Origin: Patescibacteria group bacterium
Lineage (GTDB): Bacteria; Patescibacteriota; Patescibacteriia; 2-01-FULL-39-33
Reading direction: 5' to 3'
Assembly: GCA_041649575.1 (NCBI GenBank)
Contig: JBAZMW010000002.1
Coordinates: 90,001-122,000, forward strand
Length of the DNA: 32,000 bases
The notes beneath the pieces are model-generated. The model did not search any database, had not been told where the DNA came from, and was given only the letters and a program-made list of their open reading frames with translations. Position 1 is the stretch's first letter. Each line of letters begins with the position of its first letter. Of the stretch, positions 2,775 to 9,693 are shown piece by piece. Both the position numbers and the translations under genes were made by a program.

Positions 2775-2781
2775 CTTGTCA

Positions 2782-2808
2782 CTTTTCTTTCTCTAGGAGA
2801 AAGAAAAG
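2782..2808. other. 12-bp perfect hairpin just after the SIMPL stop
   Basis: CTTTTCTTTCTC-TAG-GAGAAAGAAAAG. There is no T-run after it on the + strand. Confidence 0.6.
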
Positions 2809-2813
2809 CTGAT

Positions 2814-2881
2814 GCAAAAGAAACCCGCCCGTGCCGAACGCCAGCCCGACAGATCATTCTGGCGGGGTACGTTCGGGCGGG
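2814..2881 (-). terminator. GC-rich interrupted hairpin plus U-tract, functional only on the - strand (orphan terminator)
   Basis: Pairings are 2824-2828/2877-2881 (CCCGC/GCGGG), 2834-2840/2870-2876 (CCGAACG/CGTTCGG) and 2841-2844/2859-2862 (CCAG/CTGG). On the - strand the stem is followed directly by TTTCTTTT (complement of 2816-2823). Confidence 0.5.
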
Positions 2882-2886
2882 GAGTC

Positions 2887-2912
2887 GCGAGCTAAATTTT
2901 CATTTAGCTCGC
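2887..2912. other. 11-bp perfect hairpin in the eno upstream spacer
   Basis: GCGAGCTAAAT-TTTC-ATTTAGCTCGC, followed on + by an A-rich tract. Confidence 0.6.
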
Positions 2913-2954
2913 AGGAAAAAAAATCAAAATCAAAAAAAATACTAAAACTTAATT

Positions 2955-4244
2955 ATGGCAAAAATCAAGTCAATTGCAGTGCGCGAAATTTTGGCTTCTG
3001 GCGGGGCGCCGAGTTTGGAAGCAAAAGTAATTTTAGAATCAGGGGCGACAGGAGTAGCCTCGGTCTCCTATGGAGCATCGGCCGGCAGTAAGGAAGCTTT
3101 TGTGATGCTTGACGGCGACAAAAATCGTTATAACGGCAAAGGCATGCTTAAGGCCAAAGAAAAAATCGATTTGATAATTGCTCCGGCTTTGATCGGCAAG
3201 GAGGCCAATGACCAAAGGGAGATCGACGAGCTGATGCTGCAACTGGATGGAACAATAAACAAAGCCAATTTGGGCGGCAATTCTATTTTGGCGGTTTCGC
3301 TGGCGGTGGCCAGAGCCGCTGCCGCTGATAATGATTTACCGTTATATAAATATCTAAGAAAAGTTTTCGCTATCAGTCCAGCTTCTTTGACAAGCAACAG
3401 TTCGGAGTATTGGAAAATGCCCAAGCCGATGGTGGTAATGATCGAGGGCGGCAAACACGCCGATGAAACCACCGACTTGCAAGAGTATTTAATTTCTTCC
3501 CTAGGCAACAGGAGCGCGGCAGAAAACGTGAGAATACAGATGGAGATTTATGAGGCCCTGAAAAAGATTCTAAAAAGAGAAGGATTGTCCACTAATGTCG
3601 GCAATGAGGGAGCTTTTGCGCCGGGCGGTATTGTTGGTAATGAAAAACCGATGGAATATTTTGTCGAGGCCATAAAAAATGCTGGTTATACGCCCGGTGT
3701 TGATGCTGGTATTTCCATTGATGCCGCGGCCAGCGAGCTCTACAGCGAAGAAACAAAAAAGTATACCTTGGCGCTGGAGAAAAAAGAAATGACCTCGGAA
3801 GAATTAGTCGCTTATTATTTATCTTGGATAGATAAATACCCTTTCGTGTCCTGGGAAGACATGCTCTCGGAGTTTGACTGGGAACATTGGCCAAAACTGG
3901 TGGAGGCGGTAAACAGTAAAATAATAATTATCGCCGACGATTTGACAGTGACCAATCTCAAGTTGTGGCAAAAAGCCATTGATGAAAAAGCAGCCACCGG
4001 GATTTTAATTAAGCTAAATCAGGCCGGTTCGGTGACCGAGACGGTGGATTGCTGTGTTTTGGCTCAAAAGCATGGTTTTTGGAAAGTGCCCTCTCATCGT
4101 GGCGGCGGAGAAACCAACGATACCTTTATGGTTGATTTGGCCGTAGCGGTTGGTGGTGAGTATATTAAAGTAGGCCCCACCAGAGGAGAAAGGGTTTGTA
4201 AATATAATCGGCTGATGGAGATAGAGGAGGAGATTAACGGCTAG
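2955..4244 (+). CDS. eno: enolase (phosphopyruvate hydratase), divergent
   Basis: 429 aa. Contains YGASAGSKEA, DDLTVTN, the enolase signature ILIKLNQAGSVTET, and SHRGGGETNDTF (canonical SHRSGETEDTF with one extra Gly). Confidence 0.92.
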   Translation: MAKIKSIAVREILASGGAPSLEAKVILESGATGVASVSYGASAGSKEAFVMLDGDKNRYNGKGMLKAKEKIDLIIAPALIGKEANDQREIDELMLQLDGTINKANLGGNSILAVSLAVARAAAADNDLPLYKYLRKVFAISPASLTSNSSEYWKMPKPMVVMIEGGKHADETTDLQEYLISSLGNRSAAENVRIQMEIYEALKKILKREGLSTNVGNEGAFAPGGIVGNEKPMEYFVEAIKNAGYTPGVDAGISIDAAASELYSEETKKYTLALEKKEMTSEELVAYYLSWIDKYPFVSWEDMLSEFDWEHWPKLVEAVNSKIIIIADDLTVTNLKLWQKAIDEKAATGILIKLNQAGSVTETVDCCVLAQKHGFWKVPSHRGGGETNDTFMVDLAVAVGGEYIKVGPTRGERVCKYNRLMEIEEEING

Positions 4245-4274
4245 TATTAAAATATTTTTGCCTCAGTGGGTTAA

Positions 4275-4327
4275 GAGTTTTTTAAAAAAGAAAACTGCCT
4301 CATCCTGCGCGTGCGTAGGTGAGGCAG
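4275..4327 (-). terminator. rho-independent terminator of the - strand orphan gene
   Basis: Stem CTGCCTCA/TGAGGCAG (4295-4302/4320-4327). On the - strand it is followed by TTTTCTTTTTT. Confidence 0.75.
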
Positions 4328-4348
4328 TCGTGAAGAACGGGTCGGCCA

Positions 4349-4789
4349 CTACTTTACGAAGTTGAAGTGGCCATAGCGCATGCCGCTGTGAAGCCACCCG
4401 ACGATTGCTTCGCCCTTGTACTCGCCGTCAAGGACATGGGCCGTGAATAGCCAGGAGGCTTCCCTACGCTCTCCCAAAAAGTCCAACAGGAGACCGGTGA
4501 TGCGAATCGTTACTGTTTTCAGGTTGAATTCGTCGCTGGTCGCCGTACGGATTTGCTCGTCGGTAGCGCTCAGGTTGGTCGTGGCATACTGCAGGAGGCA
4601 GTAAATCATCTGTCTACCATTGTATATCCTGAGCGAGTCTATTAGCGTCGCCTGGCCCGGACAGCTTGTCACGTGGTTTTCGAAGTGCTCCCGCTTTCTG
4701 TACTTTGAGTCGGTAAGCAGCTTTGTTAGGGCCAGCCGGACAGCCTCGTCAAGCTCCACAAAGCAGCCATTTCGTTCATTTGTTGCCAT
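4349..4789 (-). CDS. hypothetical protein, 146 aa, no recognisable family; atypical composition
   Basis: ATG at 4789-4787 is preceded by GGAGG 6 nt upstream. The ORF-track start at 4828 is a GTG without an SD. The ORF ends in a TAG stop and has its own promoter and terminator. Codon bias (GAC 7:0 GAT, AAG 5:1 AAA) is unlike the neighbours. Confidence 0.6.
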   Translation of the reverse strand: MATNERNGCFVELDEAVRLALTKLLTDSKYRKREHFENHVTSCPGQATLIDSLRIYNGRQMIYCLLQYATTNLSATDEQIRTATSDEFNLKTVTIRITGLLLDFLGERREASWLFTAHVLDGEYKGEAIVGWLHSGMRYGHFNFVK

Positions 4790-4894
4790 AAGGCACCTCC
4801 ATTTCTTGCTAACGTACACCAGTCTCACTCACAGAGGCGGAGACTTGCCTCCATATTCCGCTAGGCGGAACGACCCATCCATAAGAATGGGAAT
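4790..4894 (-). promoter_or_regulatory. predicted about 105-nt structured 5' leader of the orphan gene
   Basis: Lies between the predicted -10 box and the ATG. Contains several GC hairpins and a duplicated AUGGAGG string. Confidence 0.35.
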
Positions 4895-4900
4895 TAATAT

Positions 4901-4929
4901 ATTTTACTAAATAGAATAGTTTTTGTCAA
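4901..4929 (-). promoter_or_regulatory. sigma70-type promoter TTGACA-N17-TAAAAT
   Basis: Reverse complement of 4924-4929 is TTGACA and of 4901-4906 is TAAAAT, with a 17-nt spacer. The -35 box abuts the gpmI start codon at 4931. Confidence 0.5.
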
Positions 4930-4930
4930 G

Positions 4931-6499
4931 ATGGCAGTTAATAAACCAAAACAATCTAAAAAAGTGATTTTATTAATTTTAGACGGCTGGGGGATTGGCA
5001 AAAATGACGCCTCCAATCCGATTTTTTTGGTCCGGCCGAAATTCATCAATTCGCTTTATAAGAAATACCCTCACACCCAGATTTGCGCCTCTGGCCGTTG
5101 TGCCGGGCTGCCGCCGGATCAAGTAGGTAATTCCGAGGCTGGGCACATGAACTTGGGTGCCGGACGAGTGGTCGACCAGGATGCTGTCAAAATTTCCAAA
5201 CAAATAAATACCGGTGAATTTTTCAAAAACCCGGCTTTTTTGGCGGCGTTTAGCCACGTCAGAAAAAATAATTCCGCCCTGCACTTGATAGGCATGCTTT
5301 CTAACGGGCAGAGTCCGCACAGCGATCCCGATCATCTTTTGGCCCTGTTGACCATGACGCGGAAATATAAGGTCAAAAGGATTTATCTGCATTTATTCAC
5401 CGACGGACGCGATAGCCCGCAACATTCCAGTCTGAAGTCAATAATGGCCTTGGAGCGATCTTTGAAACCTAATGAAATAATCGCCACTGTCATTGGCCGT
5501 TTTTATGCCATGGACCGCAAAAAATCATGGGACCGCACGGTGCGCTCTTATAACGCCATGACCGCCGATCACAGCGAACATCGCGCCAATAGCCCGCAGG
5601 CCGGAATCATGCGCGCCTATAACGCCAACATTACCGATGAGTTCATAGAGCCGATTGTTATTTATCGAAAAGGAAAAATAATCAGAAGAATAAGTGACGA
5701 TGACGCGATTATTTTTTTTAATTTGCGCAGCGACCGCGCCCGTCAGCTGGCCAAGCCTTTTGTCCAGCATGATTTCGAAGCAGCCAATCCCGGCTCGGAA
5801 AAATTTCCCCGCAAAGAAATCCTAAAAAATATAGTTTTTGTCGCCATGACCGATTTTGGCCCCGATTTAGATAATATCTTGACCGCCTACCCCTCCGAAG
5901 ATTTAAAAAATACTTTGCCTTTTGTTTTAAAAAACAAGAAGCAGGTTTATATTGCCGAGAGCGAGAAATACGCCCACGTCACTTTCTTTTTTAATGGCGG
6001 TTATGCCGATCCGGTTGCCGGGGAAAAAAGGATAAACGTTCCTTCGCCCCGAGTCAGGTCTTATGATGCGGCTCCGGCGATGTCGACCGCGGCCATTACC
6101 AAAAAAGTTATCTCCAGCCTCAAGAGTTACGATTTTATTTGCGCCAATTTTGCGTGTCCGGATATGATTGGCCATACCGGCAATCTGCTGGCGGCCAAGC
6201 AAACAGTCAAAGCGGTTGACGGCTATCTAAAAAAGGTGGTTTCCGCTTGCCTGAAACAGCAGGCAACCTTGATCATTACAGCCGATCATGGTAATATAGA
6301 GTACATGCGCAATCTTGATACCGACGAAGTTGTTACCGAGCATACCACCAATCCGGTGCCCTTTATTGTTATCAATAAAAATTTTAACAGAAACAGTCAT
6401 TTGAAAAAGGGCGGATTTTTGGGTAATGTGGCGCCTACGATTCTAAAATTACTTGGCATCAAAAAGCCAAAAGAAATGACCAAAGACAGCCTGATTTAA
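4931..6499 (+). CDS. gpmI: 2,3-bisphosphoglycerate-independent phosphoglycerate mutase, paralog 1 (more divergent)
   Basis: 522 aa. Contains LILDGWG, GNSEAGHMNLGAGR, FTDGRDS, EKYAHVTFFFNGG, PDMIGHTG and TADHGN. Confidence 0.88.
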   Translation: MAVNKPKQSKKVILLILDGWGIGKNDASNPIFLVRPKFINSLYKKYPHTQICASGRCAGLPPDQVGNSEAGHMNLGAGRVVDQDAVKISKQINTGEFFKNPAFLAAFSHVRKNNSALHLIGMLSNGQSPHSDPDHLLALLTMTRKYKVKRIYLHLFTDGRDSPQHSSLKSIMALERSLKPNEIIATVIGRFYAMDRKKSWDRTVRSYNAMTADHSEHRANSPQAGIMRAYNANITDEFIEPIVIYRKGKIIRRISDDDAIIFFNLRSDRARQLAKPFVQHDFEAANPGSEKFPRKEILKNIVFVAMTDFGPDLDNILTAYPSEDLKNTLPFVLKNKKQVYIAESEKYAHVTFFFNGGYADPVAGEKRINVPSPRVRSYDAAPAMSTAAITKKVISSLKSYDFICANFACPDMIGHTGNLLAAKQTVKAVDGYLKKVVSACLKQQATLIITADHGNIEYMRNLDTDEVVTEHTTNPVPFIVINKNFNRNSHLKKGGFLGNVAPTILKLLGIKKPKEMTKDSLI

Positions 6500-6511: not shown

Positions 6512-8107
6512 ATGTCTGACATAAATAACAATACTCGCCCCAAGCCGGTGGTTTTGATAATTCTCGACGGTTGGGGAGTGGCGCCGGCCTCGCGAGCCAA
6601 TGCCATTTCTCTGGCCAAAACGCCAGCCATTAACAATCTAATCAAGACTTATCCGGCCATGACGCTTCAGGCTTCTGGCGAGGCAGTGGGCTTGTCGTGG
6701 GGAGAAATAGGAAATTCCGAGGTTGGCCATCTTAATCTCGGTTCCGGGAAATTAATTTATCAAAATTTGCCGCGAATCAACAAGGCTATTACCGATGGCT
6801 CCTTTTTCAAAAATGACAAATTTTTGGCAGCAGTAAAATCCGCCAAAGACAAAGGCGCCGCTCTTCATTTGATGGGCTTGGCTTCTTCCGGCGGCGTCCA
6901 TAGCTCCATCGACCATCTGTTTGCTTTAATGGAACTTTGTGCCAAGGAAAAACTCAAAGAGGTTTTTATTCATGTTTTTCTGGATGGTCGCGACATGCCT
7001 TACAATTCCGGCATTGATTTTATTAATAAGATTCAACAGAAAATCGCCGAGTATAAAATTGGCCAGATTGCTTCTATTTCCGGCCGTTTTTATGCCATGG
7101 ATCGCGATAATCACTGGGAGCGCATAATTTTGGCCTATAACGCCATGGTGAAGGGAGAGGCGGAAAATAAATTTACTGATCCGCTAAAGGCCGTTCAATC
7201 ATCTTATGACAAAAAAATTTATGATGAAGAGTTTGTCCCGACGGTTATCATCAAGAATAATTCTCCGGTGGGCACCATTAAGGCCGGTGATTCAGTAATT
7301 TTTTTCAATTTTAGAAGCGACCGCGCTCGAGAAATCACCAAAGCTTTTGTTCTGCCAGGTTTTGAGAAGTTTCCTCGCCAGTATCTCAAAGATTTGTATT
7401 TTGTATCTATGACCGAGTATGAAAAAGAGTTGCCGGTAGAAGTCGCTTTCCCACCGGAAAATATCACCGAGCCGCTAGCCAAAGTGATTGCCGCCGCCGG
7501 TCTGAAACAGCTTCATATTGCCGAAACCGAAAAATACGCCCACGTCACTTTCTTTTTTAATGGCGGCCTGGAGGAGCAATTTACCGGCGAAGAACGCATC
7601 TTGGTCCCTTCGCCGCGCGTGGCTTCTTATGCTCAGAAGCCAGAGATGTCTGCCAAGGAGGTGACCAAAAAAATAGTTAAGGAAATCATGGATGATAAAT
7701 ACGATTTTATAGTGATTAATTTTGCCAACGGCGATATGGTTAGCCACACCGGTGACCTGAAGGCCACCATTAAAGCCTGCGAGGTGATTGATGGTTGTGT
7801 TAAGCAAATAGTCGAAGTAGTTTTAGCCAAAAATGGAGCGGCTTTTATTACAGCCGACCATGGCAATGCCGAGGAGCTGGTTAATTTGCAATCGGGCGAA
7901 ATCGACAAAGAGCACAGCACTTATCCGGTGCCTTTTATTATTATCGGCAAGCAGTGGGAAGGCAAAACTGCCGGTTTGTCCGAGGTGCCTAATTCCGATT
8001 TAAGCTTGGTTCAGCCGTCGGGCATCCTTTCCGATGTCGCTCCGACGATTCTTAAGGTGATGAATTTGGAGAAACCAGAGGCAATGACCGGTCGCAGCCT
8101 GCTTTAA
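6512..8107 (+). CDS. gpmI: 2,3-bisphosphoglycerate-independent phosphoglycerate mutase, paralog 2 (canonical-looking)
   Basis: 531 aa. Contains LIILDGWG, GNSEVGHLNLGSG, FLDGRD, EKYAHVTFFFNGG, GDMVSHTG and TADHGNAE. Confidence 0.93.
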   Translation: MSDINNNTRPKPVVLIILDGWGVAPASRANAISLAKTPAINNLIKTYPAMTLQASGEAVGLSWGEIGNSEVGHLNLGSGKLIYQNLPRINKAITDGSFFKNDKFLAAVKSAKDKGAALHLMGLASSGGVHSSIDHLFALMELCAKEKLKEVFIHVFLDGRDMPYNSGIDFINKIQQKIAEYKIGQIASISGRFYAMDRDNHWERIILAYNAMVKGEAENKFTDPLKAVQSSYDKKIYDEEFVPTVIIKNNSPVGTIKAGDSVIFFNFRSDRAREITKAFVLPGFEKFPRQYLKDLYFVSMTEYEKELPVEVAFPPENITEPLAKVIAAAGLKQLHIAETEKYAHVTFFFNGGLEEQFTGEERILVPSPRVASYAQKPEMSAKEVTKKIVKEIMDDKYDFIVINFANGDMVSHTGDLKATIKACEVIDGCVKQIVEVVLAKNGAAFITADHGNAEELVNLQSGEIDKEHSTYPVPFIIIGKQWEGKTAGLSEVPNSDLSLVQPSGILSDVAPTILKVMNLEKPEAMTGRSLL

Positions 8108-8193: not shown

Positions 8194-9693
8194 ATGAAAA
8201 GCAAAACTTCTCAAAGAATTGCTGAAGTATTTCCGGCTGCCCTAGTTTGGGCGACCTTTTTTTTGGCTTTTCTAATTTCTTTTATCCGGCCGCTGTGGGC
8301 CATTTATTTTATTCTCATTTTTGTCGTTTATTGGATTGTCCGCTTGTTTTATATGATGATTTGGCTGGTGATTTCCTGGCTTTGCTATCGTCGCGATATT
8401 AAAATCGATTGGCTTGGCAGGGTCAAACAGCTGCCCAAAAATTATTTGGACTATTATCATGTCATAACCTACCCCACCTATAAAGAGCCTTTTGAGGTCA
8501 TTGAGCGATCACTTGATAAATTATTAGAGACTGATTATCCCAAAGATAAATTTATTGTTTGCCTTGGCGGGGAAGACAGAGACCAGGATAATTTTTTGCA
8601 AATTGCCGAAAAAATAAAAAATAAATTTGCCGAAAAGTTTTTTAAATTATTAATCACCGTTCATCCCAGATCTCCCGACGAATTGCCCGGCAAGGGCTCT
8701 AACGTCCATTACATGGAGCAAAATTTAAAAAAGGTGATCGATGAGCTACAGATACCTTATGAGAGAGTCATAGTTTCTTGTTTTGATGTGGAAACCCTGC
8801 CTCATCCCCAATACTTCGCTTGCCTAACTTATAAATATCTCACTCACCCCAATCCCACTCATGCCAGCTATCAGCCGTTGATTCTTTATAATAATAATAT
8901 TTGGGAATCGAACCCGATCATTCGCGTCGTTGCTTCCGCCACCACTTTCTGGCTTCTGACCGACCTGTCTCGCCCCGAACGATTATTGACTTTTTCTTCC
9001 CACAGTATGAGCTTTAAAATGCTCGTTGATGTCGGTTTTCACGATAAGACGATTGTTACCGAGGACTCCCGCATTTGTCTGCAAGCCATGGTTCGTTATG
9101 ACGGTGATTATGAGGTGGTGCCGATGTTTGTCACTTTATCGATGGACACAGTGCAAATTGGTTCATTGAGAAAAAGTTTTATTAATCAGTACAAGCAAAT
9201 GAGGCGCTGGGCTTGGGGGGTGGAGCATTTTCCTTGGCTTTGGGCTAATTTTTTTGGCGCCAGTGCTAATCATAAAATTCCTCTCAAAAAACGTTGGCAA
9301 TATTTATGGAATCAGACCGAAGGAATGTATTCTTGGTCCACCGCGCCACTGCTGATATTTGTCGTTGGCCGGCTGCCGTTGTTAATGGCCTCCGACGCCG
9401 TTAAGGCCACCGCTTTTTTTCAGAAGGCCCCTTACACGCTGGAGCATTTGATGTTAATCGGCATGGTTGGTTTGATAGTCAACTCAATTATGTATACTTT
9501 GATGCTCCCGGCCCGGCCCAGAGGTTATGGTCTCTGGAATTATCTGATTATGATAGCGCAATGGGTTATTTTTCCCGCCACCATGATCATTTTTGGTTCT
9601 ATACCCGCTACCGAGGCCCAAACCAGGCTGATGCTGGGCGGCAAGTATCGTTTAGGTTTCTGGGTGACAGAAAAACAAGTTAAAAATCAATAA
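8194..9693 (+). CDS. membrane-embedded processive family-2 glycosyltransferase (cellulose/chitin-synthase-like)
   Basis: Carries the D,D,D,QxxRW set: YPKDKFIVCLGGEDRD, CFDVET, VTEDSR and QYKQMRRWAWG. TM segments flank both ends. The ORF-track start at 8140 lies inside the terminator loop, so ATG 8194 (MKSKTSQ) is preferred. Confidence 0.8.
   Translation: MKSKTSQRIAEVFPAALVWATFFLAFLISFIRPLWAIYFILIFVVYWIVRLFYMMIWLVISWLCYRRDIKIDWLGRVKQLPKNYLDYYHVITYPTYKEPFEVIERSLDKLLETDYPKDKFIVCLGGEDRDQDNFLQIAEKIKNKFAEKFFKLLITVHPRSPDELPGKGSNVHYMEQNLKKVIDELQIPYERVIVSCFDVETLPHPQYFACLTYKYLTHPNPTHASYQPLILYNNNIWESNPIIRVVASATTFWLLTDLSRPERLLTFSSHSMSFKMLVDVGFHDKTIVTEDSRICLQAMVRYDGDYEVVPMFVTLSMDTVQIGSLRKSFINQYKQMRRWAWGVEHFPWLWANFFGASANHKIPLKKRWQYLWNQTEGMYSWSTAPLLIFVVGRLPLLMASDAVKATAFFQKAPYTLEHLMLIGMVGLIVNSIMYTLMLPARPRGYGLWNYLIMIAQWVIFPATMIIFGSIPATEAQTRLMLGGKYRLGFWVTEKQVKNQ

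Follow-up and report, generated by a model that had tools for sequence, protein, structure and literature searches.

A probable horizontally moved, moron-like gene cassette with a structured leader RNA between eno and gpmI of a Patescibacteria genome

How a lone gene read against its neighbours came to lie between the enolase gene (eno) and gpmI, and how it is controlled, is the question raised by a 32,000-nt stretch of Patescibacteria DNA (GCA_041649575.1, contig JBAZMW010000002.1, positions 90,001–122,000), referred to here as the window. Between 97 and 26894 the other long open reading frames (ORFs) are all on the + strand when shadows of + strand genes are set aside, as the initial annotation of this DNA had stated; the neighbours comprise hypA, pgk, a small GIY-YIG gene, SIMPL/DUF541, eno, two tandem gpmI paralogues and glycosyltransferase genes. 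The exception encodes 146 aa and is labelled "hypothetical protein" in the source Patescibacteria metagenome-assembled genome. Taking anatomy and origin jointly, we think it very likely that the segment 4284–4929 is a horizontally acquired, self-contained unit. The fuller reading that we favour, in which this unit is a moron-like, horizontally moved cassette with a new leader RNA that gates its translation, appears probable as a whole. The promoter, GGAGG, ORF and GC stem reported earlier were all found where they had been placed, and the cassette is made up as follows.

4924–4929, − strand: −35 hexamer TTGACA, 1 nt from the gpmI start codon (4931, opposite strand)
4901–4906, − strand: predicted −10 hexamer TAAAAT, following TTGACA after a 17-nt spacer
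4790–4894, − strand: structured 5′ leader RNA of ~105 nt, identified by a covariance model and covariation
4800–4796, − strand: GGAGG, 6 nt 5′ of the ATG at 4789
4349–4789, − strand: coding sequence (CDS) of 146 aa plus stop codon (TAG, 4351–4349), a member of an undescribed family of 137–161-aa proteins
4284–4329, − strand: predicted intrinsic terminator, consisting of a hairpin (4329–4293) and then a U-run (4294–4284)

The predicted promoter, TTGACA-17-TAAAAT, agrees with the consensus at 11 of 12 positions and is the top promoter-like site in the first 20 kb; it would start transcription at ~4894. At the opposite end of the cassette, the 8-bp GC stem of the initial annotation (4295–4302/4320–4327) forms the core of a longer terminator hairpin, 4329–4293 (−21.6 kcal/mol, z = −2.8, with 1 of 200 shuffles equally good), and UUUUCUUUUUU lies directly 3′ of it. 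A consensus scanner overlooked this terminator solely on account of its apical loop, which exceeds 8 nt. These signals suggest that the cassette is expressed autonomously. An alternative GTG start at 4828 (159 aa) was rejected; it falls within helix P3 of the leader described below, and the homologues all begin with MA at the conserved ATG. On the + strand, neither a promoter-like site nor a convincing terminator was found between eno and gpmI (4245–4930), so that transcription of gpmI may read antisense through the cassette, against its strong promoter. In one relative (L003) a terminator is located after eno.

The encoded protein had been called an orphan with no family in which it could be placed. 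The first part of that description did not hold, as the gene belongs to a very rare family with seven known members, all of them in uncultured organisms. A word-indexed search of 5.8 billion proteins recovered only the protein itself, and an exhaustive phmmer search of 1.8 billion representatives found four real relatives (E = 7e-15 to 2e-4): P0002 (E = 7e-15, 143 aa), P0003 (E = 2e-9, 137 aa), P0005 (E = 1.5e-6, 146 aa) and P0006 (E = 1.7e-4, 149 aa). A profile search contributed P0007, and scanning metagenome contigs for a DNA pattern contributed a 144-aa member at locus L067; searching for homologues a third time, now with a 7-sequence profile, gave no new members. One further candidate, the 755-aa repeat protein P0004 (E = 7.5e-9), was discarded as spurious, with only 22–39 residues matched per repeat and an hhalign probability of 0.8% when compared with the family profile. 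The six homologues align with the window protein from end to end at 24–38% identity, and 17 positions are invariant across the seven proteins. For L066/L067, the closest homologue pair, the ratio of nonsynonymous to synonymous substitution rates (dN/dS) is 0.18, which indicates purifying selection and answers, for one pair, the question of reading-frame conservation that the initial annotation had posed.

The absence of a placeable family did stand, since profile and structure searches linked the protein to no known family, housekeeping or otherwise. Pfam, NCBIfam, PHROGs and PADLOC gave no match for any member (0 of 7 in PADLOC), and the family profile found no match among Protein Data Bank (PDB) sequences. 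A single-sequence AlphaFold model was unusable, with a predicted local distance difference test score (pLDDT) of 36.6; adding five homologues to the window protein raised this score to 79.1, and the resulting six-sequence model is an alpha+beta fold with a predicted template modelling score of 0.74. With Foldseek, nothing in PDB scored better than E = 0.3 and BFVD was negative. Neither the protein nor its leader belongs to a described family.

The copies of the cassette, in the window and at loci L062 to L067, have different neighbours: eno/gpmI, Ddl, an M23 peptidase, GAPDH, a PrmC-like protein, or Hsp20 with tRNA-Val, tRNA-Ile and an NrnA-like protein. Their internal layout is conserved. A perfect TTGACA lies 128–140 nt 5′ of the ATG in all four members with known upstream DNA, a −10-like box precedes leader hairpin P1 by 8–9 nt in the window, L063, L064, L065, L066 and L067, and the same six of the seven members carry a hairpin and T-run 3′ of the stop codon. 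L066 and L067 cease to be similar right after the terminator, and within this pair the leader is 88% identical and the CDS 72.5%. The promoter-to-terminator package may therefore be mobile as a whole, judging from these shared boundaries. Outside the −35 box and the terminator, no motif is common to the copies. The cassette is antisense to its neighbours in five of six loci, a trend only (binomial probability ~0.1). Relatives of the cassette were absent from viral, phage and plasmid collections, including IMG/VR, INPHARED and PHROGs.

Some further observations concern individual copies. Two of the seven adjoin lower-glycolysis genes, the one in L064 (737–1201) GAPDH and the one in the window (2955–6499) eno/gpmI, which may be chance or a hint of a functional link. 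Upstream of the cassette in L067, between tRNA-Val(GAC) and tRNA-Ile(UAU), positions 9500–9600 resemble a third tRNA that was not called by ARAGORN. The motif (C/T)GTTCT(T/G) directly follows the stop codon in four of the seven cassettes (window 4330–4348; L063, L065 and L067), and a similar string, CGTTCA, occurs after P3 in several leaders.

Composition sets the window ORF apart from its surroundings. GC content at third codon positions (GC3) is 0.687 versus 0.395–0.529 across 26 neighbours, an index resembling the codon adaptation index (CAI-like) is 0.54 versus 0.68–0.78, and overall GC is 0.537 versus 0.427 in the flanks. When 789 sliding 441-nt segments are ranked by GC, the top five all lie inside the ORF, making it the GC maximum of the 32 kb, and its tetranucleotide distance corresponds to z = 3.4. 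Codon counts cited earlier as visibly foreign (Asp, 7 GAC/0 GAT; Lys, 5 AAG/1 AAA; Phe, 5 TTC/2 TTT) are exact, and a recount of six 60-nt blocks again gave 30–37 G+C each; the 28 neighbouring genes have the opposite bias (GAC/GAT 194/299, AAG/AAA 249/584, TTC/TTT 63/386). Foreign composition is thus borne out, the ORF being singled out by both the codon-adaptation and the tetranucleotide checks. Across the family, the CDS is richer in GC than its flanks by 0.11–0.18 in the window, L063 and L065 and matches them in L062, L064, L066 and L067. Since four members match their flanks, the GC excess is not a family-wide constraint, and this argues for a recent arrival at the window locus.

Translation signals differ as well. 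Host gene starts in the window, L067, L003 and L014 are preceded by T/A-rich strings such as TTTTATG and almost never by a Shine-Dalgarno (SD) sequence; the scarcity remarked on in the initial annotation amounts to any upstream GGAG in only 2 of 28 neighbouring genes. About half of Parcubacteria have been reported to be without an anti-SD motif (PMC9297842). The cassette of the window, and an unrelated antisense cassette in the related locus L014, do bear a GGAG(G) site.

The junction itself was compared with related loci. Scanning for these with gpmI, one genome being taken per species, gave 59 loci, of which 25 have eno and gpmI as neighbours. None of these 25 encodes a relative of the 146-aa ORF at the junction, the synteny expected of an insertion. 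The eno-gpmI spacer measures 0–210 nt in 20 of the 25 and 686 nt in the window. Five relatives have other content at this position, which points to a hot spot for insertions: an aminotransferase-like gene in L006 (5073–5897) and a ~530-aa FAD oxidoreductase in L013 (3225–4871) and L015 (4281–5861), all on the same strand; a 490-nt AT-rich gap (21% GC) with no ORF in L011 (5510–6001); and the opposite-strand cassette of L014 (CAYGKC010000006.1, 4337–4805). The last has a perfect TTGACA-17-TATAAT, a GGAG site, a 121-aa ORF and a terminator, and its protein has no Pfam match and falls in a protein cluster of three members. At the borders of the window cassette there are short, weak repeats only. 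Two direct repeats joining the eno 3′ end to the promoter/gpmI start, a possible duplication, were rejected, being ~60% identical, AT-rich and gapped. Among the neighbouring genes of the window there is no transposase or integrase.

The gene on the other side of the junction complicates this picture.

2955–4244, + strand: enolase, a xenologous replacement relative to the clade by identity comparison with eight relatives

The window enolase is 47–51% identical to the enolases of the eight relatives, which are 69–80% identical among themselves; for pgk and the two gpmI genes, identities fall in the range seen across the clade. The spacer between SIMPL and eno is also unusual, at 180 nt compared with ~15–50 nt in most relatives, and contains a GC-rich element (2823–2915) with two strong hairpins (−52.9 kcal/mol, z = −4.2) that has no Rfam match and was found in no other fetched locus. 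Because the enolase is itself a xenologue, the history of the junction is more complex than one clean insertion, and the earlier proposal of a recently acquired, self-contained single-gene insertion is upheld in its substance and given up in that one respect. An extra possibility is that the cassette and the foreign enolase arrived together on one replaced segment (~2775–4930), through recombination with another Patescibacteria lineage. Two foreign pieces do lie side by side, and the structured spacer element would mark such a segment. The enolase, however, is host-like in composition (GC3 0.495 and CAI-like index 0.68, versus 0.687 and 0.54 for the ORF), none of the six other cassette copies adjoins an enolase, and the unrelated inserts in five relatives give the junction a hot-spot-like character. 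Because of the first two of these observations joint arrival is not favoured, and we regard it as possible but rather unlikely.

A leader of about 105 nt had been described, and its length is right; it is not a plain leader, since it is the most conserved part of the cassette and a structured RNA with covariation. Its elements in the window are listed below, where class A leaders are those of the window, L064, L066 and L067, and class B those of L063 and L065.

4874–4891, − strand: P1, 7-bp hairpin CCCAUUC-UUAU-GGAUGGG, with the loop and closing pair C-UUAU-GG conserved
4855–4871, − strand: P2, 7-bp hairpin GUUCCGC-CUA-GCGGAAU, fixed in position and variable in sequence
4822–4851, − strand: P3, GUCUC (4844–4840) paired with GAGAC (4826–4822), interleaved with a tentative pseudoknot stem
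Within 4822–4851, − strand: tentative pseudoknot stem, GAGGC (4851–4847) with GCCUC (4838–4834), possibly H-type, in class A
4784–4800, − strand: invariant block GGAGGUGCCUUAUGGCA, containing an extended SD, GGAGGUG (4800–4794), and hairpin P4
4795–4784, − strand: P4, UGCC-UUAU-GGCA, with the AUG (4789–4787) in its loop and stem

A covariance model built from two leaders recovered the other five at 14–60 bits, and with a seven-leader model members scored 46–109 bits versus at most 21 bits in 724 kb of related loci; for covariance-model hits in all members a span of 45–148 bits was also obtained against that background. In the alignment fitted to the model 97.5% of cells pair, compared with 34–48% in slid controls, and double-sided changes were found in 12 of 28 pairs versus 3.7 in shuffles (0 of 500 shuffles reached 12). 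RNAalifold, applied to an unfitted MAFFT alignment, recovered P1 and P4. Folds of the six full-length leaders as single sequences contained P1 in 6/6, P2 in 5/6 and P4 in 5/6 cases, with z from −1.8 to −6.8; P2 in L067 was seen by manual inspection only. P1 begins ~3 nt from the inferred 5′ end and shows compensatory changes at two pairs. Of the seven P2 pairs, five are altered on both sides when the four sequences aligned at this helix are compared. For P3, pairing is 100% across seven sequences, with one double change; for the pseudoknot stem it is 89%, with one clear compensatory change (L066). Against Rfam 15, nothing in the window reached gathering scores; miRNA-type matches at chance level, with E up to 5, appeared in the cassette and four homologous loci.

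Conservation is strongest at the translation start. The 16-nt GGAGGTGCCTTATGGC is identical in six of the seven members, despite protein identities of 24–38%, and in L062 the sequence GGUC-UUAU-GGCC at P4 constitutes a compensatory change. The invariant GGAGGUGCCUUAUGGC block thus places the start codon in a UUAU-loop hairpin, which P1 mirrors at the 5′ end. CTTATGG, which occurs five times in the 64 kb of the window (both strands), is found twice within 94 nt in every full-length leader. Occurrences of GGAGGTGCCTTATGGC in 68 viral contigs proved to be chance SD-start matches, with leader model scores of at most 25 bits versus at least 45 bits for true members. An upstream ORF from the AUG in the P1 loop was considered and judged unlikely: no SD precedes it, its AUG belongs to a stable tetraloop 14 nt from the 5′ end, and the peptides it would encode show no conservation. 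In class A, bases of the P3/pseudoknot region can alternatively pair with the SD region. We treat this SD-sequestering helix as tentative because it lacks covariation, opens at a cost of only 0–4.3 kcal/mol and does not occur in class B.

According to the reading that we favour, the cassette would have inserted antisense between enolase and gpmI of a Patescibacteria genome related to Buchananbacteria, as a package moving whole: a near-consensus sigma-70 promoter, the structured leader, the extended SD, a 137–161-aa alpha+beta protein and an intrinsic terminator. Its promoter would fire independently of the host operon. The 5′ end of the mRNA would be protected or stabilised by P1, with P2, P3 and the possible pseudoknot next, and translation would be set at the start block, the start codon lying inside P4 and the P4 loop repeating that of P1. 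Only two single-stranded elements are conserved in sequence in all leaders, namely the identical C-UUAU-GG loops, and the start codon lies in one of them. A trans-acting factor recognising both is accordingly the likeliest form of control; by binding the twin hairpins, it would shut the start site. The simplest candidate for such a factor is the protein that the cassette itself encodes, and this would impose feedback on a dosage-sensitive product. The anatomy by itself, twin C-UUAU-GG hairpins with the AUG in one, would fit an autoregulatory operator. This feedback step is a tentative proposal that seems to us somewhat doubtful. An extended version holds that leader and protein form a self-regulating RNA-protein module specific to Patescibacteria, with the twin UUAU hairpins and the pseudoknot as binding partner or sensor for a new-fold protein, and that the package spreads without a recombinase of its own and brings SD-led translation to non-SD hosts; this we consider unlikely.

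Several points weigh against the favoured reading. The promoter, terminator and start site are predictions from sequence, and none of a recombinase, terminal inverted repeats, a target duplication or an attC site marks the cassette. It may not have arrived alone, since the enolase is also foreign. The six other copies come from metagenomic contigs. Covariation was counted on an alignment fitted to the structure under test, with seven sequences only. SD sequestration is strong in class A leaders only, and the pseudoknot and the SD-sequestering helix, both tentative, are not distinguished by sequence. Finally, isoelectric points in the family (5.8–9.4) are near neutral and not clearly basic; this disfavours an RNA-binding role and weakens the idea of feedback by the cassette's own product.

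The near-neutral isoelectric points would suit a different use of the same RNA, in which the leader senses a small molecule as a riboswitch, or is some other direct RNA sensor, and the protein acts as a small enzyme or binds a ligand. A ligand would fix the P1/P2/P3-pseudoknot fold, or join the two UUAU loops in the way of the twin-hairpin guanidine-II riboswitch, and so leave the SD and AUG open or closed. The covarying, multi-hairpin leader with its possible H-type pseudoknot is of a suitable kind. In class A, an SD mimic (GGAGGC), anti-SD strings (UCUCC and GCCUC) and the SD can pair in mutually exclusive ways, and the invariant polar residues Q46, D51, S52, Y56, Q60, E110, W113 and R138 cluster in the sequence, suggesting a pocket. 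The leader, however, matches no known class in Rfam, and the SD is largely unpaired in class B (L063 and L065), which makes a common expression platform doubtful. Few unpaired bases are conserved beyond the two UUAU loops, and the alternative SD helix does not covary. A riboswitch appears quite unlikely.

The leader might also be passive, with P1 stabilising the 5′ end, the other hairpins protecting the mRNA and the strong SD securing high constitutive translation of an accessory protein. The position of P1, the near-consensus promoter and an SD extended to 7 nt in hosts whose genes are without SDs are all compatible with such a role. What it leaves unexplained is conservation: stabiliser hairpins do not require a conserved loop sequence, yet P1 and P4 have both kept C-UUAU-GG, and over proteins that have diverged so far the SD-start block of 16 nt remains invariant. 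We find a passive leader decidedly unlikely.

A very improbable alternative is that the unit is an RNA-protein toxin–antitoxin (TA) or anti-phage defence module, in which the leader RNA would neutralise a toxic protein in the manner of type III TA systems. The cassette resembles such modules in being one gene under a promoter of its own, in its patchy distribution and foreign composition, and in the structured, possibly pseudoknotted RNA directly in front of the gene; the tightly built start site would fit a toxic product. The leader nevertheless has no tandem RNA repeats, and no terminator (hairpin and U-run) lies inside it before the ORF; PADLOC recognises none of the members, a Foldseek search of PDB gave nothing with a ToxN-, AbiQ- or CptN-like fold, and the phage, plasmid and viral collections are without matches. 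That the feature is a chance ORF or an assembly chimera is barely credible: foreign composition and rare homologues are its sole support, and against it stand an identical sequence with both host flanks on two separately assembled contigs, full-length homologue alignments, the low dN/dS and a structure predicted with confidence from the alignment.

The moron-like, leader-gated cassette that we favour can be set beside several known systems. Phage morons (PMC3594210) are inserted between conserved genes of a phage and form transcription units independent of them. As a moron would, the cassette consists of one extra gene with its own predicted promoter and terminator, has a GC content unlike that of its neighbours and sits between genes that are adjacent in relatives. 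Four of five moron traits taken from that source are present (promoter, terminator, GC and extra DNA); the fifth, a phage or prophage location, is absent. The cassette resides instead in a cellular housekeeping cluster (pgk, SIMPL, eno, gpmI and glycosyltransferases), the searches gave no viral relative, and its conserved structured leader is not part of the moron definition. The leader RNA and the protein family are what is best called new here; the kind of element, a moron-like cassette, is already known, though in this instance it is chromosomal.

For the leader, the closest parallels are translational operators to which the gene's own product or a partner protein binds, such as the hairpin at the MS2 replicase start, a target of coat protein, the pseudoknot in the leader of T4 gene 32, and the leaders of ribosomal proteins L20 and S15. 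The cassette similarly has its SD and start codon in or beside a small hairpin, with a similar hairpin or a pseudoknot upstream, and its RNA is conserved more strongly than its protein. It differs in that the protein has no known RNA-binding fold or strong basic charge, binding being a proposal, and in that the leader has no sequence or Rfam relation to the MS2, gene 32, L20 or S15 leaders. The guanidine-II (mini-ykkC) riboswitch comprises two hairpins with identical conserved tetraloops, ACGR. In the cassette leader, too, one tetraloop sequence with a C-G closing pair occurs in two hairpins, of which the second is at the translation start, but the loops are UUAU, the hairpins are ~85 nt apart with two helices between them, Rfam gives no match, and the gene that follows is neither a transporter nor a guanidine-related enzyme. 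With type III TA systems (ToxIN, CptIN and TenpIN) the cassette shares a structured RNA upstream of a small gene in one promoter-driven, patchily distributed unit; it lacks tandem repeats, an internal terminator and any PADLOC or structural match to ToxN, AbiQ, CptN or TenpN.

Patescibacteria have small, streamlined genomes in which the gain and control of accessory genes are little understood. A complete expression unit that can be traced over seven genomes at seven sites would suggest that, within this group, whole packages from promoter to terminator are passed on intact. The candidate cis-regulatory RNA and the protein family, which has no detectable relatives, are both small enough for direct biochemistry, and a strong SD kept in hosts without SDs offers a natural test of SD pairing by such ribosomes. 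The unrelated antisense cassette in L014 and the replaced enolase in the window mark a recombination hot spot in a core metabolic cluster.

Two features of the surrounding cluster may be added. Between pgk and SIMPL, positions 1603–1893 encode a 96-aa GIY-YIG protein (Pfam E = 7e-15) that is found in none of the related loci, and this gene is a second lineage-specific insertion in the same cluster. The gpmI paralogues (4931–6499 and 6512–8107) are ~42% identical to each other, and the pair is conserved in Parcubacteria-type loci.

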